Positions 3,926 through 61,885 of a stretch of 64,000 bases of DNA are shown one piece after another (position 1 is the first letter of the stretch; the number at the start of each line of letters is the position of its first letter). The DNA is taken from contig OY740797.1 in assembly GCA_963514005.1 (NCBI GenBank), forward strand, positions 18,786,001 to 18,850,000. Direction: 5' to 3'. This DNA is from Raja brachyura (Eukaryota). The translations under genes were made by a program, and so were the position numbers. The notes below the pieces were generated by a model that ran no database searches, was not told where the DNA came from, and was given only the letters and a program-made list of their open reading frames with translations.

Positions 3926-4372
3926 GTCTCTTATAGTTTCAGTCTGCTGTAACTTACCACTTTTACATTGAGGAGAGAGGGAGATATGCTGCAATATGTG
4001 TGTACACCATGTCCATCATGATTGCATATTGAGAAATGCATGTAGCATATGAGATGTGTACATGTATGAGCTGGAGTAGAGTTTGTTGGGAGATTAGCCG
4101 TAGTTTCAATCTACTTTAACCAACTATTAAACAACCCTCATATTAGAGCTGTTTCTTCAGCTCTTTCCTACTACTGCTTCCTATCATCTTGTGGAAGTTT
4201 ATTGGATCTTCAAATGTGCAGAACTGTTGGTGAAATAAGGCACACTTGGATCCGTGTTGCCACTTTTTCCCAGTGCTCCTCATGCTACACAATGATTTCC
4301 AGCAGTGATTGGGTTGAGTGCTTTTATTATTTATGAACAATAAGCAGTAATGGCACTTCTTTCATTGAACAG

Positions 4373-4471
4373 AGGGAAGCCTTCTTCCCATGAAGACAGT
4401 GTAGATGAGCAGTCTCAGGAGATACCCGGACAAGCTTGGCAGAGCCAAACCAATCTTCAGGTTGAGTATAG
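4373..4471 (+). CDS. CNGB1: CNGB1 exon: GKPSSHEDSVDEQSQEIPGQAWQSQTNLQVEYR
   Basis: ttcattgaacag|A acceptor, TAG|gtcagt donor, phase 2 to 2, fits both neighbours. Resembles human KKLPSEDDE..VAWS. Confidence 0.8.
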
Positions 4472-5060
4472 GTCAGTAATTTTATTGACCAACAGTTGTT
4501 TAATGGTTGATTATAATTACGTTTTTCTTCCAGCTTACTTTTGAAAATGTACCTTTCCACCACTGTTTCAAGAAGTTATCAAAAGGTGATGACTGAAATA
4601 ATATCAAAACGACAATTTTCTGATTCTCGATGATTGTGGGTTGCGGCAATGTGCTGAGATCACAGCAAACCTAGGACATTCTAGGTGGCCTGAAATTTGC
4701 TTTATTGTTCCATTTAAGAGTTTGACAAGATTCACATGAAATTAGTGTAAAATACTATCAGTGTTATTGTTAATAAGTATCTTAATGTATATTGGAAAGT
4801 ATAGATGGTGGGAAGATTTAACTCAGAAATGTGGTAATTGTGAAAGAGAGCAGGAAATGTATCCTCCTTACCTGGACTGATCGATATGTAACTCCAGACC
4901 CACCAGTGTTGTTGATTCTGAAGAATCTTCAGGTAAAGAGGGGGATAGGGCATCATAGATAAATTTCTTTAATCATTTACTCTTAACTTTTTTGTCCTTG
5001 TTGCTTGAAACATGACTGGGTTTGTACTAGCCAATCATACATATTTCTGACCAGCAGTCA

Positions 5061-5746
5061 AAGGTTCAACGGTCAGTTTATTGTCATATGTACCAATTAA
5101 GGTACAGTGAAACTTGAATTACCATACAGCCATACTAAAAAAGAGCAACAAGACGCACAACTACATAAAAGTTAACATAAACATCCACCACAGCGAATTC
5201 CCCACATTCCTCACTATGATGGAAGGCAATAAAGTCTAAACTGCTTCCTCTTTTTCTCTTCCGTGGTCGGGCCAGTCGAACCATCCGTAGTCGTGGCAAT
5301 CGAAGCTACTGCGTCGGGTCGGTTGAAGCTCCTGTGTTGGGGTGGTCGAAGTTCCTGTGGTCTGGTGCTCCCGAAGTCGGTCCCTAACCAGGGACTGCGA
5401 GCTCCACAATGTTAGTCCACAGGCTCCCGCAGTTGGAGCTCCAAGGTCGATCCCCGACAGGGGTCGCCAGCTCCGCGATGTTAAGTCCGCAGGCCCCCGC
5501 GGTTGGAGCTCCCGAAGTCGATCTCCAGCAGAGGCCGCCAACTCCACGATGTTATGCCGCAGTGCGGATGGAGATACGATACGGAAAAAAAAATCGCATC
5601 TCCGTCGAGGTAAGAGATTTAAAAAAGTTTCCCCCAACCCCCCACATAATACTAGCTAAAAAACATAAAAACATACATTTAACACATACTGAAAAAAGAA
5701 CAATGAAGGAAGGGACGAGACAGACTGTTGGCGAGGCAGCCATTGC
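5061..5746 (-). mobile_element. GC-rich non-autonomous retroposon with Rex1/Babar-like 3' tail
   Basis: Homologous to 41672-42465. The 3' end (reverse strand) has a tgtacc..ggtaca stem-loop plus tgacaataaa. Internal tandem repeats (gctccgcgatgttaagtccgcagg). Confidence 0.65.
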
Positions 5747-6459
5747 AGGCAGAGATTCAACATTGTTCTGGTCACAGAAAAGGATCTACGATCATCCATT
5801 ACAATCGTTCCATTCTTTTACTTGTATATAGCTTGATTGTACTAATGTATGGTTTGATTTGACCAGATAGCAAGCAAAACATGTTTTTCATTGTATCTTG
5901 GTACATGTGACAATAAGAACATGAATCTAACCTCTCTAGTTACTGATTGATTTTTCATACCCACTTTTCTGCAGGTTATCCACTCCCTCAAACATTATAC
6001 CTCTAAACCAATGTTCTGTTACCTTGTGCAGGAACCTTTTATGTGGCAAATGCCTTCTGGAAATCCAATCATTCTGCGTCACCTTTATCACAGCCTCAAA
6101 TAACTCTAGCAAATTTGAGAAATATGATTAACTGTATTAACTCTTGAGTGAATTACAATTTTCTCAATGTCATGTTATTTTTCTGTTAATAATGGATTCC
6201 ATGAATTTCCCAGAGTTCAGCAAACAGACCATTAATTTCCTGCCTTCTGTCTCCCTCCGTTCTTGAATATAGGCCATAATGTAGGGAGTTTTAATTGATA
6301 TAGTCAATGTGCATGACATCTAGTGCCTTGGGTTGTATTTTTGATATTGATGTTTTTAGTATAGCTGCGTAAATTACAGTTTTAATGTCTGCACATGATT
6401 GCACATTACCTAGTTGGAAAATCAAGGGGACTAAATTCATCCTTATTGTTCCGTTTTAG

Positions 6460-6611
6460 ATCTCCACAGGGTTCAACTTCAAGTATTACGAGTGCTATTG
6501 TTAATGAGCGCCTCCAGGAATTAGTTAAACTCTTTAAAGAACGAACGGAACGGGTCAAAGAAAAGCTAATTGACCCCGAGGCATCTGAGGATGAGGGAAG
6601 TCCAACAGCAA
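6460..6611 (+). CDS. CNGB1: CNGB1 exon with N-terminal calmodulin-binding site (CaM1)
   Basis: [35 protein letters not shown]. ttttag|A acceptor, A|gtaagt donor. Confidence 0.95.
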
Positions 6612-6718
6612 GTAAGTAAAGGGGGATTTGGGACTGAGTTCAAGACCTGATGGTTGGGGTGGAACTGGCAGAGTGTTTGTTTTAAATAACAACGTGAAAT
6701 GATAAAGTCGTTCTACTT

Positions 6719-7217
6719 TAGGTAGACAAAAGTGCTGGAGAAACTCAACGGCAGCATCTATGGAGCGAAGGAAATAGGCAACGTTCTGGGCGGAAACCCT
6801 TCTTCAGACTGATGGAGGGGGGGGGGGGGGTGGGGCGGGGAGAAGAAAGGAAAAAGGAGGAGGAGGAGCCAGAGGGCTGAGGGAAAGCTAGGAATGGGAG
6901 GAGACAACAAGGGCTAATGGAATTGGGAGAATTCAATGTTTAAGCCACTAGGGTGCAGACTGCCCAAGCGGAATATGAGGTTCTGTCCCTCCAATCTCCG
7001 GTGGTGCTCGTTCTGGCCATGGAGGAGGCCCAGGACAGAGGTTGGATATGGAATGGGAGGGGAGTTGAAGTGCTGAGCCACCGGGAGGTCAGGTCGGTTA
7101 ATGCGGACCGAAACGTTGCCTATTTCCTTCGCTCCATAGATGCTGCTGCTCCCGCTGAGTTTCTCCAGCACTTTTGTCTACCTTCGATTTTCCAGCATCT
7201 GCAGTTCCTTCTTAAAC
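6719..7217 (-). mobile_element. Truncated Penelope-like element with inverted terminal repeat, ~14-bp TSD
   Basis: Reverse-strand GIY-YIG C-terminus (PDLPVAQHFNSP..FRLGSLHPSGLNIEFS), then a + strand copy of the terminus from 7108. Flanked by aagtcgtt(c/t)tactt at 6705 and 7218. Confidence 0.85.
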
Positions 7218-7859
7218 AAGTCGTTTTACTTAATGGTTTCTCTGAGCCACTGAGTGAACTACAATGAGGGTTTCAGAAACATGATCGAGTGGCATGAATT
7301 TGGAGAAACACAAGAAGGTGCAAACATAGCAGTAGAGTTTCAGGGCTCAGAGGGTTATCATACAAACTTGGCAGACCATAATATGGGTTATAAGCCATGA
7401 AACCATGCTATCCCATGCAAATACCAGAGACAGCCCTGCAGAATGAGGAGGATGGGGGATGAGTATCTGAGGTGGTTGGAAGTATGGGTGGAGGAGAGGG
7501 GCATGGGAGAAAATGCAGGATTGGTATTTCAGTTATTCAACTGATCAAAGTTATGCAGATTTTCTCCCTTTTTTACACCATAGTTGAAGTTTACTGTAAT
7601 ATGTTAAAATTTGATTTCTAATTCATAAGAATTTCTTAAGAGGCGGATGGACTTGTTCATCATTGTTATTGTTACTTATCCACTGTTTTTTTTATCCCTT
7701 AAAAGTTGCATTAGTGAACAACCACATTGTTAAGGAGTGATACATTTACATCATATATATTTTTATTCTCCTTTTGTAGACAACATTGATAAAACACGTT
7801 TAAGTTAGCAGTAAAATAAAGAATAAGTATATTTGGTTAGAACATGCTTGGTACAGCCC

Positions 7860-8600
7860 AGTAGAGCCATAGAATCATACAGCATGGCAACAGGCCTTTG
7901 GCCCAACTTATCCATGCTGAGCAAAATGCTCCATCTAAGCTAGTCCCATTTGCCCACCTTGGGTCCATATCCCTCTAATCCTATCTGGTCCATGTACCTG
8001 TCAAATATATTTTAAAAGTTGTATTTGTACCTGACTCAAGTTCTTCCTCAGGCAGCTTGTTTTATATACCCACCATCCTGTGTGTGAAAAAATTGTCACT
8101 CAGGTTCCTATTCCCCTTTCACCTTAAACCTATTCCCTCTAGTTCTAAATTTCCATACCCTGGGACAAAGACTCTTTGCATTCATCCTCTCAATTCCCCT
8201 CATGATTTTATACACCCCCATAAGATCACCCTCCTGCGCTGCAAGGAGTAAATTCCAAACCTACCCAGCCATCCTCTGTTGTTCAAGCCCTCAATTCCTG
8301 GCAATATTCTCACAAATCTTCTCTGCAATCTTTCCAACTTAATGGTATCTTCCCCAGAGCTGGGTAACCCAAAACTAAACACAATGCTCCAAGTGTGGTC
8401 TCACCAACATCTTGTACGAGTGTAACATAACTTCCCAACTTCTCTAGTCAATTCTATGATTGATTAAGGCCAACATGCCAAAATATGCCAAAATCCTTGT
8501 TCATCTTCCTATTTATGTGCAAACCACTTTCAGGGACCTTTGCACTTATACTAGATCCATCTGCTTACACCACTCCCTAAGGCCCCACTGCTTACTGTGA
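7860..8600 (-). mobile_element. CR1 LINE 3' fragment
   Basis: ORF2 C-terminus remnant (IKLERLQRRFVRILPGIEGL..YSLQRRR) and CR1 tail. Confidence 0.85.
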
Positions 8601-8972
8601 AAATATAGCTGCTGTCCACAGTAGAATCTACCATCTAGCCCTGCGTCAACGCCCTCAAAGATTCCCAACACCCTCCTATTGGTGAATCTCAACTGAGGTT
8701 GGTATTATCTTCCAGTTGATATGCTCTAAATTCTGTCCTAACCTCTGAACCAGAGGCACTGCCCAAAATGGCAGGATGTTGGTTGGAGGATACTATTGTG
8801 ATGGCCGTACTTTCATTAAAGCCCGACTTCACTCGCAAATTCTTCCTTTGGAAGTTCATGAGGGCATGAAGGGCAGTAGAAAAAAATTACTTCTTTCTAT
8901 TGAGTTGTTCCATTAGAGAGCTGAGGTATTTCTAACTATCTTACGTATAAACCTTTTTACATGTCACCACAG

Positions 8973-9140
8973 CACCTGCGAAGAGGGCCCCGGAAGCCTC
9001 TCTCCCAGCTGCAGATGAAAAGAAAGAGGAGCTGGAAGAGGAGCACTACTGTGAAATGATATGCTGCCGATTTAAAACAACACCTTGGATCAGACGGATC
9101 AAAGCAGTGGGGCTTCCATCCAGTGTTGATCCTTTCAGCA
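8973..9140 (+). CDS. CNGB1: CNGB1 exon: PAKRAPE...EEEHYCEMICCRFKTTPW...SVDPFS
   Basis: caccacag|CA acceptor, A|gtaggt donor. EEEHYCxMxCCxFK motif of CNGB1. Not in the ORF track, translated by hand. Confidence 0.93.
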
Positions 9141-10345
9141 GTAGGTTAATTGAGACAGTCTTTGAAAGTTTGAAACTATGGTAGCCTGAATAGTGGATGG
9201 GTCCAAATGCTAACCAGTCAACAATCATGGTACCTGACGCAAACAGATCCTACTTGGGCCGAACATGGCCAACAAGGTTTTTTCCGAAGAGTAGGTAGTT
9301 AGCCAATATGTGTGAAGGGCCAAGATCCTAGCCATGGAAAAGCTGATTTATAGGTACTCATCTGAACATTGCAAAGGGAACTAAACCTGATAGACAGGAA
9401 TAGTGATCAGGTTTCCATCACAGCAAGACTGTTCACCAGAAACCAGTCAACAGTTTTGAGCCTGAGAGTTAACAAATTAATAGAAAAGAGTTTACAATCT
9501 CCACATCTCACAGGTATCAATATTTCAGGTCAAGTGGGAAAGGCAATAAGGGAAGTTCCTCATTGTTTGACTGCATGTTTCCAGCACTCTTGATCTGCAG
9601 CCACCCTGGTTAGAAAGTCCATGAGGAGCAGAACTTACGACTAATTGTCGACTAAACATATGTCCAGAGATCAAAGAAAAGGGAAGATGCTGAAAACCTG
9701 AAATAAATCAGACAATTCTGGAGATACTGAGCAGGTCAGGCAGCATCGGCGAGGGAGAAACAGAGTTAACGTTTCAAGTCTGAAACATTAGACATAAATT
9801 AGGTTAGAGTGATGGTGTAGTCGCTTGTTGATACTATTTTTGTAGAGCCATTAATCCAAGTGTGTTCCGCAGAAGAAGGAATGGTTTTATCAGACAACGC
9901 CTCGTCATCTTCTAAGCTATTAATTATCAGAACCAGAGATGCAATTGGCAGGAAATAATGAATCTGGTATATTCAGTACTACATACTGTGGTAGACTCTG
10001 TACTGCATTAACTTTATTTTCACTCAGTGGTATAAGTTTACTATAGGGTAAAAAACAGCCTACTTCCATAATATCACCCACTTTTTTCCCCATGGACCAT
10101 ACACAATGCTAACTATAGTAAAGTGTTTTCCTTGCTGTGGTTGTTACTCTGCATCCTGCTCATGTGCTGTGACTGTGACCTTATTATTGCAGCCATTATA
10201 TTAGAAGCAATTAGTCGGTAAATGGAAATCTTCATTCATTCAGTGCAAACGAGTACAGTGGCCACTCTGTTGTGTCTGTAGGTAGTTATATTCCTCTGCA
10301 ATACTAAACCCATTGTAACACAGTTATTTTTGTTTTCTATCATAG

Positions 10346-13240: not shown

Positions 13241-13499
13241 GTGAGTCATTACACTGGTGAACATGAATAAGGTTCACTGCGCTGTCCTTCAATAATCACC
13301 ATGAACAATGACTATTAGTGTATTGATGAATAGCTCTTGCCTGGAGTGGCATTGATGAGCTCTGGAAATAGAGTTTAATGAAAACTGGATAAATACATGA
13401 GAGAGAAAGGAATAGAAGGTCATGCCAAGGTTGTTAAAGGAAGGGAGATGGAAAGCAGCTCATGTGGACCAAATACCACATGATCAACTAAGGCCAAGT

Positions 13500-13965
13500 C
13501 CCACTGAATCTCCCGGTTGCTAACTATTTTAACTTCCCTTCCCATTCCACACTTGACCTTTCTGTCCTGAGCCTTCTCCATTGCCAGAGTGGGCCACATA
13601 CAAACTGGAGGAACTGCACCTCATATTCCACTTGGGTAGCCTACAGCCCAATGGTATGAACATTGAGTTCCCCAATTTTAGGCAACCCCTAACTAACCTC
13701 CCCCCACTGCACCCCCCTCCCCTTTCCCAGACTCACACCCCTTTCTTCCCCCTCCCTCTCTCTCCCAAATGCTTTCCTCCCCCGTGCCCAACTGGACTCC
13801 CACCTATTTCTCCCCTCCAACCCCCCCCCCCCCCCCCCCCCCCCCAGCCCCACTGTTACATTTTTCCCTCTGCCAACTATCTGCCTATCATAAACCCCTC
13901 TCCGGAGATGCTGCCTAATCTTCTGAGTTACTCCAGCACTTAGTGTCCTTTTGTTTACCACGTGA
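13500..13965 (+). mobile_element. Penelope-like 3' fragment
   Basis: KLEELHLIFHLGSLQPNGMNIEFPNFR, C-rich tract and terminal gatgctgcc..gagttactccagca. Confidence 0.8.
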
Positions 13966-18072: not shown

Positions 18073-18499
18073 GTGGGTTTAATTGTTAGATCTGATATAT
18101 TGCTTTTTCTGAGATTTTTATTTGCTACTTTCCTACATGATGTATTTGTAATAATATGTGCCAGTCTGTCCATCCAAATGACATCAGTAATCAATAGTTT
18201 GAAATAGAAAGTCTGTACAAAACTGCTAAAATTTGAAAATGAAAGATAAAATGCTGAAAATACTCAGTGGGTCAGACAGAATCTGTAGAGAGAGAAAATG
18301 TTAACATTTCAAGCCTATAATTGTTCATTAGAACTGGTGGAATGGGGCCAAAGAGACAAATTTGCACCCCATAGGAGGGAGGAGCAGAGTTTCTTCAGGG
18401 TGCGGATTCCCAGAGGGCAAGTGGCAGTGAATTCAGCAATAACCCAAAAGCAAACTTCAGTAGATGCTGGAAATCTGAAGAAAAAAGGCAAATGCTGTT

Positions 18500-19468: not shown

Positions 19469-20745
19469 GGTAGACAAAAATGCTGGAGAAACTCAGCGGG
19501 TGAGGCAGCATCTATGGAGCGAAGGAAATAGGTAATGTTTCGGGCCAAAACCCTTCTTCAGACTGACTGTGAGGATGGGGGGGGCGGGAAGAAGAAAGGA
19601 AGAGGAGGAGCCAGTGGGCTGAAGGAGAGCTGAGAAGAGGAGGAGAAAGTAAGGACTACCTGAAATTAGAGAAGTCAATGTTCATACCGCTGAGGTGCAA
19701 ACTGCCCAAGCGAAATAAGAGGTGCTGCTCCAATTTACAGTGGTCCTCACTCTGGCCATGGAGGAGGCCGAGGACAGAAAGGTCGGATTCGGAATGGGAG
19801 GGGGAGTTGAAGTGCTGAGCCACCGGGAGATCAGGTTGGTTATTGCGAACTGAGCGGAGGTGTTCGGCGAAGCGATCGTCACGCCTACGCTTGGTCTCAC
19901 CGATGTAGATCAGCTGACATCTAGAGCAGTGGATGCAATAGATGAGGTTGGAGGAGGTGCAGGTGAACCTCTGCCGCACCTGGAAAGACTGCTTGGGTCC
20001 TTGAATGGAGTCAAGAGGGGAGGTAAAGTGACAAGTGTAGCATTTCTTGCGGTTGCAAGGGAAAGTGCCTGGAGAGGGGGGTGTTTCGGGTGGGAAGGGA
20101 CGAATTGACCAGGGAGTTCCAGAGGGAGCCATCTCGGCGGAAAGCAGACAGGGGAGGAGATGGGAAGATGTGGCAAGTGGTGGGGTCACGTTGGAGGTGG
20201 CAAAAATGACGGAGGATAATTTGTTGTATGTGATGGCTGGTAGGGTGGAAGGTGAGGACAAGGGGGACTCTTCCCTTGTTACGAGTGGGGGGATTGGGGA
20301 GTGAGAGTAGAGTCACAGGGTATAGAAGAGACCCTGGTGAGAGCCTTATCTATGGTAGAAGAGGATAACCCCCATTCCCTGAAGAATGAGGACATCTTCA
20401 ATGCCCTGGTGTGGAACACCTCATCCTGGGTGCAGATGCGGCGTAGACTGAGGAATTGGGAGTGGAGGATAGTCCTTACAGGAAGCAGGGTGGGAAGAAG
20501 TGTAGTCCAGATTGCCATGGAAGTCAATGGCTTTTTAGTGGATGTCGGTCAGGAGTCTATCACCTGCGATGGAGATTTTGAGGTCAAGAAATGGTAGGGA
20601 AATGTCGGAAATGGTTCAGGTGTATTTGAGTGCCGGATGGAAGTTAGTGGTGAAATGGATGAAGTCAGTGAGTTGTGTGTGGGTGCAGGAGGTAGCACCA
20701 ATGCAGTCGTCGATGTAGCGGAGGTAGAGTGTGGGGATAGGGCGA
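19469..20745 (-). mobile_element. Penelope-like retroelement, 5'-truncated (RT C-terminus, GIY-YIG endonuclease, terminal repeat)
   Basis: LYLRYIDDC RT motif. RVPLVLTFHP thumb/linker. CNRKKCYTC..NLIYCIHCSRCQLIYIGETKR..RFAEH GIY-YIG. Frameshifted. Confidence 0.93.
19534..19561 (-). ncRNA. Minimal hammerhead-ribozyme motif in Penelope terminus
   Basis: Reverse strand reads CUGAAGA-A-GGGUUUUGGCCC-GAAA-CAUU. Core and stem II are intact, but the stem-III palindrome ACGU has decayed to ACAU. Confidence 0.55.
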
Positions 20746-25496: not shown

Positions 25497-25760
25497 TAGT
25501 CTAAAGAAGGGTCTTGATCCGAAACATCACCTATTGTGTAGGGAGGAACTGCAGATGTTGGTTTATATGGAAGATAGATATAAAATGCTGGAGTAACTCA
25601 GCGGGACAGACAGCATCTCTGGATAGAAGGAATGGGTGACGTTTTAAGTTCAGACCCTTCTTCAGACTGTGTCAGAGGTGCTGAGAACGCCACCTATTCC
25701 TTTTGTCCAGAGATGCTGCCTGACAAGCTGAATTACTCCAGCAGTTTGTGTCTGTCTTCT
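25497..25760. mobile_element. Nested Penelope terminal-repeat copies (a - strand copy inside a + strand copy)
   Basis: The + copy is interrupted after gaaacatcacctatt (25535) and resumes at aacgccacctatt (25686). Confidence 0.75.
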
Positions 25761-26159
25761 CTAAATAACCATCCAGCTAAGTTGCCAAAACAGCAGGCAA
25801 TTTGAATTGGTAATTGTGATTTCAATTAATTGCTCGGTTTCCATTTTCTGCACAGACAGAAATATGCTGACAGTACTGTAGTAGTACTGGCTTGTTTTAT
25901 TTATCTTTTGATTTTTAATTCTACTGAAATCTGCAGGGGTGTAAATATACTGATGATGCCTCTTCGAAAGACTAAAGATTAAATAAAATATACTTTTTTC
26001 ATTTGTACTAGAACATTATGAATTACGGAATGTAGCTCCGTCTGCTATTGATAAAATGGGGCGAAATTATCTTTCGCTTTGAACTTTGTATTCATCATCA
26101 TTGATTTGTTTAACAATCAGCAGAATAGCCAAGCCATAAATTGTGAATAGATCAGATAT

Positions 26160-27901: not shown

Positions 27902-28649
27902 GTCTGTGCAAACTCTTTTAATACTTATTGTTTTCATTCATGTACATGGGGTACATGTACATGAATGTAATAGGGGTACTGTTTTTGATATGAGTCATTT
28001 TATGCAATTAAGCAATTAAATATAATTCAGGATTAGTGATTCTAAATCCCAATTTTAGTGCTAGCTGCTTCTTGTACAGTCAGGTCAGGAAAAGCAACCA
28101 GTTTGCCATCGATGCACCTCTGCCAGGCAATGGCCTGGTCCCAATACCGAGACTTTACTCACTGCAACCCTGCTGCTGTAAACAGGGTGGAGTGCGAATT
28201 CCAACTTCCTGTCAATCGCATCACTAATGTAAGAAATGTTCAAGTGACTTGAATATTTCCTGCAGGTTTCCTGGCAATTAGACTGCTTTTCTTAAGGAGC
28301 TCACCACGGGAAGGAAACAGAAACTCTAATCTAGTGCAGGATTTGATTCAAAAACAGAAATGCTGGTTTGCTTGACTGGCTGAGTTCTCCAGCATTTCTG
28401 GTTTTGTTTAAGATTCCAATATCTGCAGTTTTATTTGTTTTCTATTACAGCAGGATTTTATTCACTGCTGTGATCTTTGAATTCCAAATGCTAGCTGTTT
28501 CCTGCACATCTAAATCCTGTCTGTACAACTCAGAGGGAGATCACAGTTTTGTATGAATGACTTAATTGTAGGCAGCAGTAGAATAGTTGTGAAGTTAGGT
28601 AGGAAAGTAATTCATAATGATATAAAATTATACATTTTATATAGGAAGC

Positions 28650-30348: not shown

Positions 30349-30580
30349 GTAGAATTAATTCAAAGATTTTCTTGGAACAAATGTTAATGTTTTAAACTGT
30401 TATTAATAAATATTAGTAAAATTGGGCAGAAAATTAAAGTTCATTCCTGTTTTGGGTAATTCTAGAAGTTGACAGCATAAACCAGATGAATGGAGAAGTG
30501 TGGAAGGGTGTTTTAAATTCATTATCAGTGAATTCAGGGACAATGGTAACAATCAGTGTGATAATGGACTTAGTTAGGGT

Positions 30581-30662
30581 TACACAAAAAGCTGGAGAAA
30601 CTCAGCGGGTGCAGCTTTTTGTGTAACCCTCGATTCTCCAGCATCTGCAGTTCCTTCTTTAA
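30581..30662. mobile_element. 82-bp fold-back Penelope derivative with 14-bp TSD
   Basis: gacttagttagggt at 30567 and 30663. The interior is made of Penelope terminal sequence in both orientations. Confidence 0.8.
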
Positions 30663-30951
30663 GACTTAGTTAGGGTGTTTGCTTCCAGTCTGTGCTGGGT
30701 TAGTTGCAGTCAGCTTGGGAAACGTCAGCCTGCTATCCAGCACATGAATACTGTCAAAGAATTCCTGCCAAGAAATGTAGCTATGCAAAGAATCAGGCTC
30801 ATTTTATACCCCCACCCACAGTTGAATAGCATTTCTTAATGACAAGATTTGTATTGGTGTTTTAAGGGTGCGCAACAAAAAACTTGTGGCTGGCTGATAT
30901 TCAGCATTTCGATTTTTCTAATTTTTCTAAAGTAACGACTTTCTTCTAAAG

Positions 30952-32150
30952 TGACGACTGCATTGGTGCTACCTCCTGCACCCACACACAACTCACTGAC
31001 TTCATCCACTTCACCACTAACTTCCACCATTTCTTGACCTCACTATCTCCGTCGCAGGTGATAGACTTCTGACCGACATCCACTATAAACCCACAGACTC
31101 CCATGGCTATCTGGACTACACTTCTTCCCACCCTGCTTCCTGTGAGGACTCCATCCCCTACTCCCAATTCCTCCGTCTACGCCGCATCTGCTCCCAGGAT
31201 GAGGTGTTCCACACTAGGGCATCGGAGATGTCCTTATTCTTCAGGGATCGGGGGTTCCCGTCTTCGACCATAGATGAGGCTCTCACCAGGGTTTCTTCGC
31301 AACCCCGTAACACTGCTCTCTCTCCCCCCTCCCCCCCCCCTGTAACAAAGGCAGAGTCCCCCTAGTCCTCACATTCCACCTTATCAGCTGTCACATACAA
31401 CATTATCCTCCGTCATTTTCGCCACCTCCAATGTGACCCCACAACTCGCCACATCTTCCCGTCTCCTCCCCGGCTCCTTTCCGCAGAGACCGCTCCCTCC
31501 GTAACTCCCTGGTCAATTCGTCCCTTCCCACCCCCTCCCCGGGCACTTTCCCTTACAACCGCAAGAAATGCTACACTTGTCACTTTACCTTCCCCCTTGA
31601 CTCCATTCAAGGACCCAAGTAGTAGTTCCAGGTGTGACAGAGGTTCACCTGTACCTCCTCCAACCTCATCTATTGCATCCGCTGCTCTAGATGTCAGCTG
31701 ATCTACATCGGTGAGATCAAGCGTAGGCTTGACGATCGCTTCGCCGAACACCTCCGCTCGGTCCGCAATAACCAACCTGATCTCCCGGTGACTCAGAACT
31801 TCAACTCCCCCTCCCATTCCAAATCCGACCTTTCTGTCCTGGGCCTCCTCCATGGCCAGGGTGAGGACCGCTGGAAATTGGAGGAGCAGCACCTCATATT
31901 TCGCTTGGGCAGTTTGCACCCCAGCAGCTTGAACATTTTCTCCAATTTCAGGTAGCCCTTACTGTCTCCTCCCCTTCTCAGCTCTCCCTCAGCCCTCTGG
32001 CTCCTCCTCTTCCTTTCTTCTTCCTGCCCCCCCCCCCCACCCACCCTACATCAGTCTGAAGAAGGGTTTTGGGCCGAAACGTTGCCTATTTCCTTCGCTC
32101 CATAGATGCTGCTGCACCCGCTGTGTTTCTCCAGCATTTTGTATCTACTT
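30952..32150 (+). mobile_element. Penelope-like retroelement, 5'-truncated, sense to CNGB1
   Basis: Reverse complement of the 19.5-20.7 kb copy: DDCIG..GIY-YIG..terminal repeat. Confidence 0.93.
32056..32083 (+). ncRNA. Minimal hammerhead-ribozyme motif in Penelope terminus
   Basis: CUGAAGA-A-GGGUUUUGGGCC-GAAA-CGUU. All core nucleotides and the ACGU palindrome are present. Stem II is weakened and stem I is only ~2 bp. Confidence 0.55.
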
Positions 32151-33596
32151 TAGATTTTTCATTGCCTGTTTTTATTGGATATTACAGTGAACTTCAACTC
32201 TGTCTTTGCAAGCATGAAATTATAAAGAATCAAATGGAAGAATATTGTCTGATTAATTTCCATTTGTTTATGTTCAAGTAAAACTGTGAGGGTAGGGAAT
32301 GAAACTTGCCTCCAATAGTAGTGTAAAATGGGCTCCTAATTAATTGCTGCCTGCTTCATATTATAGCTGCAGGTCATTACATTCCCCCCCCCCCCCTTCC
32401 CCCAGGTGTACCGATGTCTTGATCACCCAGTATCAGGCGCTTGCAAGGAAATGGTGGAGTTCTGTGGTTGCACCATTCAAAGCCATAATGGAGAAAAAAT
32501 ATGACTGCATTGTGATAAACAATGTATTTAGTAATGGAGATAAACTCGAGTCAAGTGTTTATTTGCATCAACAAGATGTTAATAATGCAGAGGAACGTAT
32601 TAATAGAACTGAAGAAATTATTCTGCCTGATATGGTATTGTACTGTTTATGTTACAGTAATGCAGGGGCAATGAGTTCCAATCTTGCCAAAATAGTATGA
32701 GGATTGGAACTCAAGTTTTAAAATGATGTAAACAAAAAGCTGGCACAATTACCAGTAACTAAGGAACAGTTGGATTGTTATGTTAACACTGTCAGTGATG
32801 CTCTTTAAGGAAGAGGAACTATGTTTCACAATCAATCTGGCTGATGTCTTTCAGTCCCAGACCAACATATTTGGAGCTGGCAAGTCACTCAGTTGTTGCA
32901 AGCTGCCACCAAATGTGATATTGTTTCCACTCCTTGTCCCACATAGCCTCCTTTACCTATTTTCCGGTTGTGGGCATCACTAGCAAGGAAAGCTTCATTG
33001 CCCATCTCCAATTACCTTAGAGGGGTGACGATGAGCCACCTTCTCTAACCCGGCAGTCCGTTTGGTGAAGATACTTCCCCAACACAGATGCCTCACTGTA
33101 TTCGTATTTTCTTAGTATGCAGCCTTTATCGATGTCTTCACACATGCTAGTCAGTTGGAGCTTTCATAAATTATACTCTGCTTGTCTGAGCTGACTTTAC
33201 CCTGTTCATATTTTTGGGTTTAAACTTATTCCATCGTGTCAAATTATTTACAAATTGTATCCATTTAAAGGCAGCTTCTCCCTAAAACCTGCAGCAACGG
33301 TGACAGAAAATGTCTTCCGATTCCTGTTCAGAAATGATCATTAGCATGCTGTCTAGTTCCCTGAGGTAAACCTGAAAGAAGGCACATCTTAATGTGAAAT
33401 GTTTTCCAGCTACGCTGGGTTCTCCAATCAAAGTGGATGTTAAAGTACTATGATCCATAAACTCGCAAAACAAGGCAATTTCGCCAGAAAGCTAGTGTGC
33501 AGAGGGACCAATAGAAATGAACATCAGCTGATCGCATCATGCATTGAAGCACTTCATAACTGAATATTCCCTATTAAAATATACCCCTGATAACAT

Positions 33597-33717
33597 TGAA
33601 GATAGGCACAAAAAGCTGGAGTAACTCAGCGGGACAGGCAGCGTCTTTTGAGAGAAGGAATGGTGAATGGGAGACTTATCGTCGGTTTAAACCAGCATCT
33701 GCAGTTCCTTCTTACAC
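33597..33717. mobile_element. Short bipartite Penelope derivative with perfect 14-bp TSD
   Basis: acccctgataacat at 33583 and 33718. Confidence 0.8.
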
Positions 33718-34211
33718 ACCCCTGATAACATCGGTTTTTGCTAGCCATGTGAAATATCACACCTACATTACTTCTACAATCCACTTCACCACTGGTCACA
33801 CTGCCAAAAACATAAACATTTATGCATTTTTGAAACTTTTCTTATCTTAGAATTCAGTTTATATAGAATATTGCCCAATACTACTAGGCCCTTTGAAGAT
33901 AATTTAGAATATTTTCAAATCCTTATTTGGAAATATCTAAATAGGTCTCACATTCCTATTGCTGCTCTGAATTTGGTTCATTAATGGAATGTGGGTAATG
34001 TTTATTGCCTCTACCTAAACGTCTTGAATAAGTGGTGCTGATTGGCCATCATAAACCAACATGGATCTGTGTCGACATTAGAAACAATGTACAAACGCAT
34101 CAATGTTCTTACACCCACCAATCAATTGAATATAGATATTTGTGCTACCTATGCTGGGCATTTAATTGTTTTCTTTCTTTTTCTTGCAACCCTTCTCTCT
34201 CCACTTTCTAG

Positions 34212-34424
34212 CCAAGTCTGCAGCCTCCTCCCTCACCTTACCATCGGCGGTCACCTGTTACAGCAAAAAAGCTGGATGAACCTGACGATGAGGACGATGA
34301 TGTTATTTCAGAAATGATGGATTCCTCTGTTTTGATCAGGATGTCTCCTGCTCACGATGGGACAAAGGAACAAATTCTGTCCGTGGAAGTTCCCGATGAG
34401 GAAAAAGAGAAGTCGGAAAAGTGA
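34212..34424 (+). CDS. CNGB1: CNGB1 terminal coding exon: PSLQPPPSPYHRRSP...SVLIRMSPAHDGTKEQILSVEVPDEEKEKSEK*
   Basis: Long pyrimidine tract, ttctag|CCA (in-frame alternative acceptor 12 nt later). Matches the human C-terminus SVRICMSP..EQILSVKMPEE. TGA at 34422-34424. Confidence 0.9.
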   Translation, partial: PSLQPPPSPYHRRSPVTAKKLDEPDDEDDDVISEMMDSSVLIRMSPAHDGTKEQILSVEVPDEEKEKSEK

Positions 34425-41671: not shown

Positions 41672-42465
41672 CTTTCAGATTCACATTTATTGTCATGTGC
41701 ACCATTAGGTACAGTGATATTTGAGTTGCCAGCAGCCATACAATTAAAAGAACACAACACAATTAAAAGAACGAGAGAATTTAACATAAACATCCACCAC
41801 AGTGATCACTGTGATGAAAGGCAATAAGGTTCAGTCAGTCTTCCTCCTTTTGTTCACCCGTGTTTGGGGCCTTGACCCTCCGCAGTCGCCGCTATGGATG
41901 GCCCGATGTACAGGCCCTTTCGTCGGGATGATCGAAACTCCGACGTCGGGACGGATGGAACACACTCCGCGGCTTAGATTGCACGAATAGGCCACTTTCT
42001 TACCGGAGACTGCGGCTTTTCGATGTTATAGGCCAGCGGTCGGAGCTCTTCTCTGGTGATCCCCGGCAAGGGATCCCTGGCTCCGGGATGGTAAAGTCCG
42101 CTCCACGCCTGCTGCTAGAAGCTCCGCAGACCGCGACTTCACGATGTTAAAGTCAGCAGGCCGGCGGTCGGAGCCTTTCTTCTGGCTCCGCGATGGAAGT
42201 CCCGCCGCGCCTGCTGCTGAAGCTCTGGGCCATCTCCAGGAAAGGCCGCACCAATCCAAGTTGTTAGGCCGCGAGGGAGGGCGAGGAGAAAAGTTGCATC
42301 TCCGCCGGGGTAGGTGACTGGAAACGGTTTCCCCCTATTTCCTCCCACCCCCACATAAAAATACACCGAGAGACATTAACACATGCATTTAGACATACTA
42401 AAAAAACAGAATTAGTCAAAATGACAGACCCACTGCTGGTGAGGCTACCGCTCGCGGCACCACCC
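41672..42465 (-). mobile_element. Second copy of the GC-rich non-autonomous retroposon (Rex1-like tail)
   Basis: Shares both ends with 5061-5746 (ttaacataaacatccaccacag..; ccccacataa..acagac..tggtgaggc). The internal repeat region differs. Confidence 0.65.
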
Positions 42466-47317: not shown

Positions 47318-47446
47318 AGTTTGAAGAAGAGTCCTGACCCGAAATTTCACCTATCCATGTTCTCCAGAGATGCTGTCTGATCTGTGGAGTTACTCCAACA
47401 CTTTGTCTCTTTTTTTGTAAACCCGCATCTGCAGTTCCTTGTTTCA
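47318..47446 (+). mobile_element. Penelope terminal-repeat copy with degenerate hammerhead motif
   Basis: ttgaagaagagtcctgacccgaaatttcacc..ccagagatgctg..catctgcagttcc. Confidence 0.7.
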
Positions 47447-48035: not shown

Positions 48036-49247
48036 AAACCACTGGAAAGTTCCTGGCTCACACCACCCTTTCATAGAATTCCTGCCAACTTTTCTCAATA
48101 AATTTGACTTTTTAACTCCACTCCTGGCTGACCTCCTCCATTCCTCTCACTCCATAAACGTGAGATTATCCAAATCTCTGCTGTTTGTTCACTAACTTGT
48201 ACTGTGCCGCTCACTACTACCCCTGTAAGTACTGACCTCTATAAGCTGCACACTAATGCCTCATCTTTTAAAAAATGATTGTAGAAATATTTTCATCACT
48301 GTTTCTCACCATTGCCTGCCTCTCATCTCAATCTCTTTGCCCCTTTGTATTTTCTGCACTTCTACATTTCTGGCACATTGATCATTCCAAATGTCCACCT
48401 GTCGGTGTATCAGAACTCTCATTTTTGGGACCACCTCTATCGTTTCTATCACTTTCAATAGAGGGACCGACCTCTATCCCTTTCATTTCTCAGGAACCGT
48501 CTTAAAAGCATCCACCTTTGACCAAGCTTTAGTTACCTCCCATAATCCCTTTGATGGCTTGTTGCCAACCTTTTGTTGAAAAACACTCCTCTGAACTGGC
48601 TGGGACATTGCAGTATTAAAAACACTCTCCAAATACAATACAATTTATTTGTTGTCATTTGAAGGTTCAAACTGAATTTGGTTTCTGCAAAGTCATACAA
48701 ACAAGAAAAAGAACCAGGATGCAACACAATTTACCCAAACATCTATCACAGCGAATCTCCTCCTCACTGTGATGGAAGGCAAAGTCTTATCTCTCCTGCT
48801 ATTGTTAGACTTCCAGGTATTGCGTGTGCACTATACCAAAGTAATGCAATTAGACAAGCTTATTTTTAAAATATATACATTCTGCTGTTTTATTTTGTTT
48901 TAGGCTTTCCTGGGTTGTCCTCCTTCATCTGATTCATCCTTAATCTGTGGTTCCTTGAGTGTTCTTGTAGCTTTAAGGCAATGGCCACTGATTGCAACTG
49001 TAGGGTACAGGGAAGGGGCGATGCCTGTAATGGAGTTGGCACAAGATGGAAGGGAACCTTGCAGCAGTGTCTGGTCTGGGGGGGGGGGGGGGTGATGATT
49101 TGATGCAACTGCAGAGGAAAGAGGTGGCTCTGGGTGTTCCACCGGTTCAATGCTGTGACCTGTGTTGTGTGAATATAGTTGAGATCTGTTGGTGGTCAGT
49201 GGCTGCCTGAATTTGAAATGTTCTGTGTAGGAAGGGGCATCAGTATG

Positions 49248-49340
49248 GTCTGAAGAAGGGTCTTGACCCATAATGTCACCCATTCCTTCTCTCTAGAGAT
49301 GCTGCCTGTCCTGCTGAGTTACTCCAGCATTTGTGTCTAG
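49248..49340 (+). mobile_element. Penelope terminal-repeat copy (hammerhead GAAA mutated)
   Basis: ctgaagaagggtcttgaccc-ataa-tgtcacccattcc. Confidence 0.75.
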
Positions 49341-51634
49341 TTTTCAAATGTTCCCCTCCACGGTCCTGCTTTGTAAGTAGATACTTGTCCTTGACCCATA
49401 GACCACCCTAACCACCACCTCCAGCCTCTTGGAGTGACCAATAAATACAGCTGTGCCAACATCTGGTGTCTGATTATTAAAAAGTAAAGTGACTTGGGAA
49501 GATGGCAAATTACTGGCTTGGGGTGGGCTTGAATTTATTTGTGAATAACAGTAGGGGGAAATGATGTGCAATGGATGGTGAGACAAAGCTGTCTGTTGCA
49601 AATTACTGTATAGCTGGGAGCTGTAGGTGTGGGAGCAGTGAACTGCAATGAGGGTTTTATCCGAATGGTTCATCACTAACTCCATGTTCGCCAACATGCT
49701 TGGCTCCATCTCACCTGAGCTTTGTCAAACTAACGTCCTGTACAGGACGATGAAGAGTTTCCTTTATCTAAACATTGGGAAGACCAAACCTTTGTTGTCC
49801 TTATCACAAATTACATTCCCTCACTACCTACTCCATCCTTCTCCTGGACCATCGCCTTGACCTGAACCAGACCACTTGCAAGCCGGCTGCCCCCATTGAT
49901 CCTGTGCTGAGCCTCTTGCCCTCAAAACCGCCACCTGTGAGCTATGATCTGCCACCTCCTGTCCTGACTTGATCTGCTGTTGAATCCCTCATCCCTTTGT
50001 TTGTTACTTACCATTAGTCTTGACTGTTCCAATGGTGTCCTGGCTGAGATTCCAGCCAGCCCTTCTCCCAAAATTCTCATTCACTTCTAATGTATAATGT
50101 GGGTCCAGGTGAATGTGAAGTCATGGGTAGTTTGTGAATTGGCACAGGAGATGTGGTGACTGACCAATAACTACTGAACCTCGTCTTTCCTTTCAATTTC
50201 AGAAGCTCTGGCTGGTGATCATTTCTTGCCAAAGCAGGAATCAAAGCTCCACGTCATCCCTTTAGGCATTGGGAAAGCAAGGGCACTCATTGGAAAACGA
50301 GCATCCAGATAAGTGGAAGAAACTGGTGGAGCTGCATTTTTGAGATGGTTTACACTATCGGGCGTGTCGAGGAGACTTTATTTTGAGTGAGGGAGAGCTA
50401 TTGTTTCGTCAGTTGATCAGAGCGTGGTGTGGAAGTGCTGCATTTGAAGATGCTGGCCGATACATTTGGATTTATCAATGCTTAAAAAGGAACGGAGATA
50501 TTGAGAGGTAACATTCTTGAGGTCTGACCTTATTGGAGGGTACAGTATGTTTATTTTACGCTCCTTCCTATTTTGTAATCTCCCTCCACCTCTCGTGGGA
50601 TCAGGGATTTTGTGTTAAATTGAGCCATGGGTTAGAGCGTGCATGAAAAATACTTCGGGATAGAAATTATGCTCGGCGGTTAAACGTTCCCGGGGCAGTT
50701 ATTTACTTACATTATCAACTTGTGGCTTGCTATCTCCTGATATGTGACAAAGGCCATTGTGAATTTACCACAAATTTTTGATTTGTTTTTAATCCCTCTC
50801 AGAACCCATGTTTGCACTCGGCAAGGAGATTTAAATGGATGGCAGAATTCACAACTCTGCTTGGGTCCGATCCTAGTTTTGCAGAATGTGTATTTTTCTC
50901 ACGATAGACAGAACGAGGTGTGGGAAAGGCGAGTCTCTACACTAGTTAAACAATAACTCTTTTTGATACGAGTTGTACCAGTCCGTGAGAGATCTGAGTA
51001 TTTTGGATCACTAGTCCCTGTAGGAAGATTAGAAGCATAAGGCAAGATTGTACTTAAATGTCAAATTATACAATTACAAGCCCTTAATTTTTAAGCTGGT
51101 GCAACGCTTTGAAGGAACAGTCCTGACTGCAAGTCAGTGCTCGGAATAAGGTTCTTGTCCAGGATAAGTGTTGGACTGTGGTATGACCTGGCCTCACCTT
51201 TTATCCATCATCAGACTCTCACCACAGTTTAGTTTATTGTCACCAGTACTGAGGTACAATGAAAAGTGTGGTAAGCGGGACCTTTAGATCATTTGGAGAG
51301 GCTGTCAGATTACTAGGAAATGGTAGCTGGCTTAGACTGGCCAATGGCAAGTCGATCTACAGTTATTGCATTGAATTCTTTAACATTATAAATTCGAACT
51401 TTCAAAAGATGTTAGAGGAAGTAACATAACAGATTGTTAACAAAATTAAAGCCATGAGATAAAATGGAGCTTGAAATAAAAATGCTCAAGTGAGGAATGC
51501 AGGTAACAATTAATCGTTTTTTTTTAATGTAGGGGGAAAAACTGGTGTTTTAAATGCGTATTAATGACCTGTACTGATTGCTCTATCAAAGTTTACTATT
51601 GATGCAAAACTTGAATGGGGTAAAGGTTGAGGAG

Positions 51635-51730
51635 ATGATACACAAAATGCTGCAGTAACTCAGCGGGTCAGGCAGCATCTCTGAAGAAAAGGAATGGGTG
51701 ATGTTTTGGGTTGAAACCCATCTTCTGAGG
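51635..51730 (-). mobile_element. Penelope terminal-repeat copy inside an old CR1 fragment (~51.4-52.25 kb)
   Basis: acacaaaatgctg..gtaactcagcgggtcaggcagcatct..gggtgatgtttt. Confidence 0.7.
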
Positions 51731-53196: not shown

Positions 53197-53330
53197 GTGT
53201 AAGAAAGAACTGCAGATGCTGGTTTAGATCGAAGGTAGACACAAAATGCTGGATTAACTCAATGGGTGAGGCAGCATCTCTGGAGACAAGGAATGGACGC
53301 TGAGTAACTCCAGCATTTTGTGTCTACTTC
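53197..53330. mobile_element. Fold-back Penelope derivative
   Basis: gtagacacaaaatgctgga..aactca / tgagt..tccagcattttgtgtctac inverted arms. Confidence 0.75.
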
Positions 53331-53629
53331 CATGGATGATATAATGTCCAAGACCCCCCCCATGAACCTTTGACTGTAGGTGTATATCTATTGACGTAGT
53401 GCACAGGTTCTGTGTGACGTCATTGCTCCTTCCTGCATCACTGATTGCTCCTGACCAGGTCAGACCTGACTGCAGGAATGAATTTACAATCAGTTTAGTA
53501 TTGGCAATTGATATCCAATGGTTGTCATTGCTTTACAGAGAGTAGATCTACATGGTACAAAATCCGGATGCTCGTGTGACTTATGGTGGCCAGAAGGTGG
53601 CACCACAGGCCGAGCTCCAACCATTTTAT

Positions 53630-58582: not shown

Positions 58583-60114
58583 CAGGCACGTGCCGTCAGG
58601 GTAGGAAAGGTAGGCACTGCCTACCCTGACTAAAATTATGAAATGGCAATTATTAAATATAAATAGTAAAGGCATGGGAGAATTATGCCTGTCTAAGAGA
58701 TCGATCTCTTAGGTAGGCATAATTTTCCGTGCCTTTCATCCGCAGCGCTTGTAACACGCGAAGGTCTGTGCAGCCCACGTGCCGTCAGCGCTGCCTGAAG
58801 CAGTCAGTTTCAAGGGGAGCTGAAGGCAGCTGAAATTCTGCCTTTGCAGTACTGCGCATGCGCAGCAGCCTGCTGTGCACGCGCAGCAAGAGTTTCTTGG
58901 CGGGATTTTCAAATATGGATTGCCATTATTTTAATAGTATCTTAGGAAACAAAGTGTGAAGAATGGACTTAATGTACCAATAACGTGGTAAGTGCATTTC
59001 TTGGTGCTTTATGTTTTTAAATGCTGTATTTCCCAGGGTGGGGGGAGAGCTCCGTTCACAATGTTTGGGGAGTCTAGCTTTGTGAAGGAGCAGATTGGGG
59101 TCAGTAACCCACTTACCATGTTCCGGTCTGAGTGCAGGTAGATGGGACTAGGTGAGAGTAAGTGTTCGGCACGGACTAAAAGGGCCGAGATGGCTTGTTT
59201 CCGTGCTGTAATTGCTGTATGGTTTAATTGTGGCCGGGGAGTGCATTAGCTCGGGTGGCTGCCGCAGCACTCCTGGCACAGACAGCAGAACTGGCCGCCA
59301 CTTCCGAGGAAGGAAGCAGCTCGGGTGTCTGTGTGTTGCCGCCGGGGCCCAGCCACTTCAGCCCCTTCTTCTGGTCCCCACTCACCTCTGGCAATGCTCT
59401 CCGTCTGAACATCTCTCACCCGCCGCTTGCCAGCCGGCTTCCCGCAAATCTTTAAATTCCGACAGCGCACTCACGGGACCAGTTGAGGTTACTTGGCTGT
59501 GGGAATTTAAGGATTTGCGGGACGCGGTTGACATGAGCGAAGCCGGCGAACGGCAGGTGAGAGATGTTCAGATGAAGAGCACTGCCAGAGTTGATCAGAA
59601 GGCACTGAAGAGCAGCTGGTTCTGGTGTTGGGTCCCGGCGGCCACTCGCACCCGAGCTGCTTCTATCCCCGGAAGTGGCGGCCAGTTCTGCTGTCCGTGC
59701 CCGGAGCGCTGCGGCAGCGGTGAGTGAGTCTGATATGATCTCTGACCCCCTCCTTCTCAAAACTTCTGCCTTCTTGCATATTTTAACCCCTGCCGCAGGC
59801 TCCCCACACGCTGTGAAAGGAACTCCCCCTCCAATTGGACCCTTGAATTAGTATTGTCATTCAATAAGATGACAACTGATTCAACGTCCCGGTGTGCTCC
59901 CGTTTTTCCCACCATCTCTCCACCTGCCTTCGTCCTCCGTCCCCCACCCATTCAGTAATTAAAAAATGAAGGAGATTTAGAACCCTTGGGAAAATTGAAA
60001 TGTTACTTATTTTTTATTTTTTATGAAGAGAACAATCTGCGCACGCGCGGTTTAAGATTTTTTTTAAAGCCGGCTGACTGCCTACCCTGAGTAATTATTC
60101 ACGACACGTGCCTG
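58583..60114. mobile_element. Non-autonomous hAT-type DNA transposon (1532 bp)
   Basis: TIR caggcacgtgccgt / acgacacgtgcctg. Perfect 8-bp TSD aaacaaac (58575 and 60115). Subterminal actgcctaccctga at both ends. Nested CR1 tail at ~59130-59225. Confidence 0.9.
59258..59718. repeat. Long imperfect inverted repeat (arms 59258-59466 and 59496-59718)
   Basis: gctgccgcagcactcctggcacagacagcagaactggccgccacttccg pairs with cggaagtggcggccagttctgctgtccgtgcccggagcgctgcggcagc. Pairing continues inward to a 29-nt loop. Confidence 0.9.
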
Positions 60115-60143: not shown

Positions 60144-60307
60144 GTTGGGGGCTCCCAGCTTTTCTAGTCTGTTGGAGGAATCCCATCAAGGCACTCAAAC
60201 TCATCAAGATGATCAGCTGTCTGCAGGAGGACAAAGTGAAGCTGCAGGAGGAACTGAACACGGCTGAGTCTATACAACAGTGCCTGGGCAGCACTCCACC
60301 ATCTCAG
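60144..60307 (+). CDS. KIFC3: KIFC3 5' exon (likely ATG at 60209: MISCLQEDKVKLQEELNTAESIQQCLGSTPPSQ)
   Basis: tgtctctcaccag|G acceptor, CAG|gtaatc donor in phase 0 with exon 61011. Open frame and heptad-like content. No clear match to the human N-terminus. Confidence 0.6.
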
Positions 60308-61151: not shown

Positions 61152-61714
61152 GTAAGAGCAGATCTGGATCACTACAGCAGGGCATGTCACGTCACACAGC
61201 ACCTCTCAGCCATGGAGCACGAGGCCAGTGGTGTAACGGGGAATGTGGCAGCAGGTTTGCACGCACAGAGGATCCAGGACCACACTGATATTGACCTGAA
61301 GAATGCCAGCTTTAATATGTTGGTTCAGGGAGAATTCTTGGCCAGGACGCTGGGAGAGAAAACTCTAGATCCCTTCATTAATTCTATGAGGTGGTTTTCA
61401 CCGAGCTGAGAGAAGAAGGTGGGACTGAAAGTCAACCTTGAAGAGCACAGCACTCCCGTGGTAGTTAGCACCTGGAATGGTGCTTAAACACATAACCACT
61501 GAACTCAACGTGTAGGTGCCATTTACTAAGCCACAGCTAATGAATTGGGAATCGGGGAAAGTGCTGGCTTTCTCTTTAGGTTTAGCTTACAGTGTCCGGT
61601 GCAGAAACTTTGTTTGTAGCTGAAGTGTGTAAGTGGAGCTACTGTATGCAACAGGATTATCTGTTGTCATTTATCCTGGGTGCTGGGCCTAGCCAGAATT
61701 GGTGCTCAGTAAAA

Positions 61715-61885
61715 ATAAATAACTGCAGATGCTGGTTACAAAAGCAAACACAAAGTGCCTTGAGTAACTCAGCGTGTCAAGCAGCATCTCCGGAGAACAT
61801 GTATAGGTGATGTTTCGGGTTGGTTCCATTTCCTCCAGAGATGCTGCCTGACCCGTTGAGTTATTCCAGCCCTTTGTGTTTTCGT
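61715..61885. mobile_element. Fold-back Penelope derivative
   Basis: Reverse-strand terminus followed by + strand ctccagagatgctgcctgacccg.tgagtta.tccagc. Confidence 0.7.

Follow-up and report, generated by a model that had tools for sequence, protein, structure and literature searches.

A minimal hammerhead motif in the terminal repeats of a likely Neptune-type Penelope-like element in a skate, with short insertions that are probably copies of uncut RNA 5′ ends

The window analysed here, a 64,000-nucleotide stretch of the genome of the skate Raja brachyura (contig OY740797.1, positions 18,786,001 to 18,850,000), contains exons matching CNGB1 and KIFC3, both on the plus strand, the KIFC3 match being 96% identical to a skate protein. 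Scattered through it is a family of terminal repeats from a Penelope-like element (PLE), whose 17 clusters represent 15 insertion sites with a total length of 4871 bp, or 7.6% of the window, and fall into at least four subfamilies that differ downstream of a hammerhead motif: A, which is linked to an open reading frame (ORF), B, C and an old D. An earlier note, made from these letters alone, had placed the motif inside CNGB1 and KIFC3 introns. For CNGB1 this holds: five copies lie in its introns, one of them (32056, plus strand) in the last, which spans 30349–34223 on the plus strand with GT-AG borders and an in-frame join. For KIFC3 it holds only in part, as mapped batoid coding exons begin at 60209 and the single insertion clearly between coding exons is that at 61713–61884; a weak upstream exon candidate at 50416–50490 (E 0.009; one isoform, sawshark) would cover the copy at 51700, not those at 47322 and 49250. 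Among other features of the window, GC-rich, partly tandem repeats at 5266–5562, 41686–42400 and 59150–59850 (with 5077–5293 homologous to 41686–41888) are probably ends of another retroelement family, and a near-perfect hairpin at 58667–58737, with arms of ~33 bp and a weak Rfam match to mir-1972 far below cut-off, is probably a small transposon remnant.

Four ORF pieces carrying reverse transcriptase (RT) or GIY-YIG endonuclease sequence lie in the window. That at 30950–32148 (plus strand), in the last CNGB1 intron, is a dead, 5′-truncated and apparently Neptune-type copy comprising the end of the RT, a Cys linker, the GIY-YIG domain, a 3′ UTR and the terminal repeat; a second dead, 5′-truncated copy, of subfamily A, occupies 19469–20741 on the minus strand, its motif (first core base, C3, at 19561) having a mutated palindrome. 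An endonuclease fragment of a second subfamily at 13444–13950 (plus strand) is joined to a C-type terminus without a hammerhead, and another forms part of the two-armed insertion at 6720–7217, where it stands with a short end on the minus strand beside an inverted tail arm (7105–7217, plus strand), between copies of a 14-bp duplication (6705–6718 and 7218–7231). All four are 5′-truncated or fragmentary, the two long ones have stops or frameshifts, the longest PLE pieces measure 1.2–1.3 kb, and no intact full ORF between two terminal repeats was found; the autonomous RT/GIY-YIG element proposed in the earlier note thus has no copy in the window.

Sharks and rays supply the closest protein relatives (the best 5 of 23), at 55–64% identity; unnamed proteins and those of gar and corals come next among the 23. 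The order of RT and then C-terminal GIY-YIG was established by tblastn, Pfam scores in the window being below the curated cut-off. A C-x4-C-x2-C linker (CNRKKCYTC in the 19534 copy) precedes the endonuclease, and such a CX2-5CxxC linker between the two domains is shared by Neptune and Nematis and marks an element with a C-terminal nuclease as one or the other (PMC8557442). Because a survey of 35 genomes recorded Neptune and Poseidon as the PLE groups of its vertebrates (bioRxiv 2026.07.22.740005), the element is likely of Neptune type, a placement made by linker motif rather than by tree. Along with RT, linker and C-terminal GIY-YIG, it shares with described Neptune PLEs an inverted truncated arm, an optional tail of 30–40 nt at one end and a target duplication (PMC8557442, PMC3846280). 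The subfamily A ORF stop (31948–31955) overlaps a splice-donor-like CAG/GTAG, and a stingray gene model (P0003) departs from the PLE protein at this donor-like site to continue in other sequence; the terminus is part of a little-skate model (P0067), and PLE ends may thus enter host transcripts. Splicing from the donor-like site into the terminus was set aside, no such RNA joint appearing among the best 15 of 71 candidates.

The hammerhead motif occurs in eight copies, with C3 at 6807−, 19561−, 25501+, 25665−, 32056+, 47321+, 49250+ and 51727−; every copy recorded in the earlier note (6780−, 19534−, 25500+, 25636−, 32056+, 47322+, 49250+ and 51700−) is therefore present. Its layout is CUGANGA-A-GGGU-loop-RCCC-GAAA-CG-U-H: CUGANGA, an extra A, a 4-bp stem II with a 4-nt loop, GAAA, CG, U and then U or C, with a stem I of 2 bp. 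In the 32056 copy it runs from C3 to H17 at 32056–32083 (plus strand), agrees with the published consensus and is predicted to be cut between 32083 and 32084. In subfamily A the motif follows the GIY-YIG stop and the 3′ UTR, and in three copies it lies ~100 nt past that stop, within the terminal repeat. The note's caveat that each copy has at least one defect applies to 8 of 8: GAAA is broken in 6780, the palindrome in 19534 and, with G5A, in 25500; 25636, 49250 and 51700 share G12A; 47322 combines C3U with broken stem II and palindrome; and 32056 has a G-G mismatch within stem II (32066/32073). Its density estimate of more than one per 10 kb is likewise borne out, with eight core-bearing copies in 64 kb and an older one near 18331 on the minus strand.

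Homology among the copies is well beyond chance, the 32056 copy matching the other seven with BLASTN E values of 1e-4 to 1e-35. A strict hammerhead descriptor returned two matches (32056+ and 19561−), where 60 Markov shuffles averaged 0.22 and reached 2 at most, so that the descriptor alone is weak and the case for the motif is made by homology. Rfam gave seven matches in the window at E ≤ 5, none to a hammerhead family. Pattern scans yielded 3 viral and 54 metagenome matches, every one an unrelated chance match on inspection, and no match in prokaryote genomes or viral contigs; when the motif was searched as a translated peptide, the matches were one little-skate gene model, with subfamily A, and three unrelated repeat proteins.

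Judged by its sequence, the motif is the already-known minimal type I hammerhead-ribozyme motif of PLE terminal repeats. Cervera and de la Pena (2014; PMC4209133) define the minimal form as CUGANGAH G..C GAAAN palindrome NUH, with examples from fish, coelacanth, frog and reptile. The skate motif shares with these metazoan forms the core (CUGANGA, one extra non-G base after A9, then GAAA, kept intact by two of the eight copies and by the majority sequence of the reads described below), a stem II that opens with G10.1-C11.1, here of 4 bp, and a palindromic CG at 15.2–16.2 ahead of an NUH triplet (ACGU, then U or C), without a monomer stem III. It also shares their location in terminal repeats and their occurrence mostly as solitary copies tied to truncated PLEs. 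Of these traits, the earlier note had rightly pointed to the extra base after A9 and the palindromic stem III. In a coral (Acropora), a Neptune motif matches the 4-bp stem II and the tetraloop, and the motif of D. virilis has a stem I of 2–3 bp like that of the skate (PMC4209133). The density here, counted in one window in which all copies are damaged, may exceed that reported in the same paper for Xenopus and coelacanth, at 4,000–9,000 per genome. Fig. S3 of the paper includes no cartilaginous fish among 56 motifs, and two of its supplement files contain neither 'shark' nor 'skate'. In the literature covered, repeat databases and subscription journals aside, we found no account of this PLE hammerhead family in sharks or rays; the supplements of bioRxiv 2026.07.22.740005 cover one chondrichthyan genome and may hold it.

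Whether the core is better kept than its surroundings was asked both of the copies and of reads aligned to 31870–32190, which comprise 8302 reads from one polyA RNA run and 50586 records from one contig set, possibly of species other than that of the window (a DNA run with 18 low-likeness reads was left out). The earlier note had named a core no more conserved than its flanks, together with a consensus that fails to self-cleave, as grounds for rejection. Among the copies the core is indeed no better kept, with mutations at 2/33 core against 6/162 flank positions in subfamily A and 4/44 against 21/220 in B/C; the B/C majority has A at G12, three of four copies sharing a CpG change, and scoring by hand against G brings the core count to 6/44. 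Such a null result is expected of dead insertions whose motif contains two CpGs (C11.1-G12 and the palindrome), and it does not refute a ribozyme in the master elements. Within the motif, subfamilies differ in ways that the fold allows: stem I and stem II each show U-G/U-A, and the loop and H17 each U/C. Of 96 possible single changes in the motif, 28 would be tolerated. Reads vary within the motif at 32068 (C, ~30%), 32072 (A, 33%) and H17 (C, ~38%), and show two reversions of the 32056 copy's own mutations (32070 and 32073), with no difference at a core position among the best 40 of 168. Covariation in stem II, which the note had proposed as a check, is weak among the copies of the window: 76% of cells are paired, changes are mostly one-sided, the two pairs with change on both sides are equalled by 147 of 500 shuffles, and no compensatory double change separates subfamily majorities. 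Selection on the ribozyme fold in master elements is likely. Predicted energies for a dimer in the active fold (−7.1 kcal/mol, against −20.8 to −40.9 for the best dimer folds, from models that do not score the catalytic core) imply that the active fold would not dominate.

The short insertions have an anatomy of their own. With arm offsets counted from C3, so that a predicted cut product starts at +28, the two-armed insertions have inverted arms that in 6 of 6 cases combine one short end (+83 to +100) with one tail end (+123 to +129), an outcome with a probability of 1 in 64 if ends were independent. Those in the last CNGB1 intron include an 82-bp insertion without the motif (30581–30662) and a 121-bp insertion (33597–33717) whose minus arm begins at +26, beside the predicted cut, each with an exact 14-bp duplication. 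At 49225–49341 an 11-nt inverted tail end faces a direct arm from −2 (12–13-bp duplication), at 53197–53333 the tail arm begins at +30 (no significant duplication), and the KIFC3 insertion at 61713–61884 has a ~12-bp duplication. Protein-less copies comprise one with a tail at 47318–47443 (plus strand), which begins at −3 and has no clear duplication; a decayed one at 51636–51730 (minus strand; C3 at 51727); and an older one at 25498–25771 (plus strand), also starting at −3, which is split at the cleavage-site region by a younger tailed copy (25536–25684, minus strand; ~13-bp duplication). This nesting fits PLE insertion into its own terminal repeat; ~15 further bases within the duplication of the younger (25636) copy are unexplained. 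Also old are a subfamily D copy at 18235–18347 (minus strand), with a U-A stem I pair where A, B and C have G-C, the 3′ part of another at 9674–9779 (minus strand) and a terminal-repeat fragment at 28379–28430 (plus strand).

Of the 16 intervals tested, 6 gave a significant target duplication (p ≤ 0.03), of 12–14 bp and in three cases of 14 bp, and five of these 6 are two-armed; the other ten gave no significant duplication. Together with the paired arms the duplications match known PLE anatomy (PMC8557442, PMC3846280, PMC8969392), differing in length from the 8–10 bp of rotifer Penelope examples, which belong to another clade, and in setting: very short duplication-flanked insertions dominate in the skate, whereas rotifer solo repeats lack duplications and are ascribed to recombination (PMC8557442, PMC3846280). 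The PLE of an anole cleaves both strands and primes reverse transcription at two internal positions, which delimit the tail (PMC11167929). Here CCAGCAT occurs twice, ~30 nt apart (7136–7205 and equivalents), once ahead of each of two 3′ ends; the second pairs with an upstream AGATGCTG in a predicted hairpin, and the two may mark the two RT start sites.

At the other end, five protein-less copies that keep the 5′ core begin at about −1 to −4, mostly 2–3 nt before CUGA, and those of −1 to −3 have no upstream sequence in common (scores of 8–16, against 24–38 among A copies). This common boundary coincides with an initiator-like TCAGTCT at 32051–32057 (plus strand; A at 32053), which also supplies the 5′ strand of stem I. 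The strict pattern of the initiator (Inr) consensus is TCAKTY; it occurs at 0.18% of positions, and the TCAGTC with its A at 32053 is the sole match within 31941–32150. Drosophila Penelope uses an internal promoter, and its RNA begins within the terminal repeat (PMC2377424). Transcripts contain the skate terminus in abundance, ~0.11% of polyA-run reads (8302 of 7.3 million examined) falling on the 321-bp stretch, and depth in that run is 367 at 32045 against ~3400 at 32068. Among the loose read ends listed at the 5′ side of the motif, those before 32053 (400 reads) and 32054 (415 reads) lead, with near-random flanks (agreement 0.37 and 0.34); a mix of subfamilies whose 3′ UTRs differ could account for part of them, and RT pausing at a fold would yield a similar 5′ boundary. 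The polyA run shows no pile-up of read starts at 32053, nor any position in 31870–32190 where many molecules begin or end.

These observations are best accommodated, at a probability of roughly 0.7, if the motif is a hammerhead in the terminal repeat of a PLE, likely Neptune, with all copies here damaged, and if the short protein-less copies are likely run-off copies of the uncut 5′ end of its RNA. The element RNA would start at or near the initiator-like A three bases ahead of CUGA, and a ribozyme forming its first 31 nt would explain a stem I of only 2–3 bp. As the anole PLE suggests, the protein would nick both target strands ~14 bp apart and prime RT at two internal sites ~35 nt apart; on a single-unit RNA the enzyme would run off after 95–135 nt or stop sooner, leaving short copies, and ORF-bearing copies would require either read-through or an RNA of tandem units. 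In masters that are active, the ribozyme may cut weakly, as a dimer or with protein help, cutting being dispensable for insertion, and inserted copies would then decay neutrally, probably without cutting host pre-mRNA.

The short copies might instead form a separate, SINE-like non-autonomous family with its own masters, internal promoter and RT start sites, moved in trans by the Neptune protein. We regard this as unlikely. In its favour, insertion in trans requires no more than PLE terminal repeats (PMC3846280), the boundary at −3 is constant, none of the 15 insertions is an ORF-linked copy of subfamily B, and terminus reads exceed ORF-end reads by ~4–6 to 1; two-armed copies, however, begin at many offsets, from +15 to +118, and the two strands are covered to the same depth at the motif (~1620 versus 1580), as with read-through from host genes. 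The copy at 13444, moreover, joins a C-type terminus to an ORF piece, so that a terminus other than A can be ORF-linked too.

A variant of the run-off reading would make the short insertions a fossil map of the element RNA's 5′ ends, with one class from the transcription start (uncut) and a second from the cut site (cut). Of the 12 arms that start inside the repeat, three begin near the start of the cut product, at +26, +30 and +33 (P ~0.05, post hoc), which is a lead at most; we consider this variant unlikely. It is improbable, too, that the motif no longer cuts and persists chiefly as an internal promoter or a site for protein binding, an initiator with an ACGT-containing downstream element. 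The initiator-like site at −3 would serve such a role, the downstream RGACGTGY of the Drosophila Penelope promoter (PMC2377424) loosely resembles bases 32077–32084, and in the predicted fold of the majority sequence a competing hairpin hides the core. Base composition by itself would yield as much: when the downstream 15 nt are shuffled, stem II pairing still falls below 0.1 in 96% of cases, for which reason we also discarded the hairpin as a selected switch; nor does a promoter account for CUGANGA, GAAA, both stems and a base other than G at H17 being kept between subfamilies.

The earlier note had further pictured the ORF-less derivatives as a retrozyme-like system, and non-LTR retrozymes of animals are indeed protein-less, hammerhead-bearing and related to PLE termini (PMC7229834; bioRxiv 2026.07.22.740005); they derive from PLE terminal repeats and are found in one chondrichthyan genome (bioRxiv 2026.07.22.740005). 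Retrozymes form tandem arrays, with classically canonical hammerheads and circular RNAs, whereas the skate copies are dispersed, often two-armed and minimal in motif; no tandem array of the unit appears among 61 tandem-repeat entries for the window, and the cut site lies inside the copies, whose boundaries do not follow it and which are thus not cut-to-cut monomers. Spread of retrozyme monomers through circular RNA is accordingly very improbable.

Equally remote is the prospect that intronic copies on the sense strand, chiefly 32056, cleave host pre-mRNA and alter CNGB1 expression. The earlier note had rightly located its best-preserved sense copy in the last CNGB1 intron, where 32056 retains all 11 core bases, the palindrome and H17. 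Its further suggestion, that cleavage there would cut the pre-mRNA, is not supported: stem II contains the G-G mismatch and has a predicted pairing of 0.0 in context, the sole other sense half-site in CNGB1 (7107) is 25 kb away and without CUGA, and in vitro a single minimal motif gave no cleavage and dimers gave low cleavage (PMC4209133). Four of the eight copies are sense and four antisense, and RNA reads show no pile-up of ends at the 32056 motif, a weak test, with one fragmented polyA run from an unstated tissue and perhaps another species. The conserved intronic hammerheads of amniote RECK and C10orf118 are single, active and kept at orthologous sites; the skate copies are minimal, damaged and in a recent insertion. 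Cleavage of CNGB1 pre-mRNA by the 32056 copy is unlikely, and as regards CNGB1 that copy is most likely an ordinary dead insertion.

Both the motif and its link to PLEs are already known, and what is new is a member of that family from the skate lineage. A close comparison is PAc, a Poseidon element from Anolis (Frangieh et al. 2024; PMC11167929), which shares the optional ~35 nt tail, a hammerhead near the RNA 5′ end and the lack of RNA reads ending at the cut site, and which belongs to another clade; the ORF of PAc starts inside the ribozyme. The role of PLE hammerheads has been called unclear (PMC8557442), and in vitro the ribozyme was protein-assisted and dispensable (PMC11167929). Cartilaginous fish offer scale: a very abundant family of short insertions between target duplications, in which both ends can be placed exactly, an abundance and sharpness that make PLE hammerhead function testable from genome data. 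If the short insertions do record the 5′ ends of the element RNA, their boundaries across what are likely hundreds of thousands of skate copies would provide the first in vivo evidence on cutting by a PLE hammerhead.
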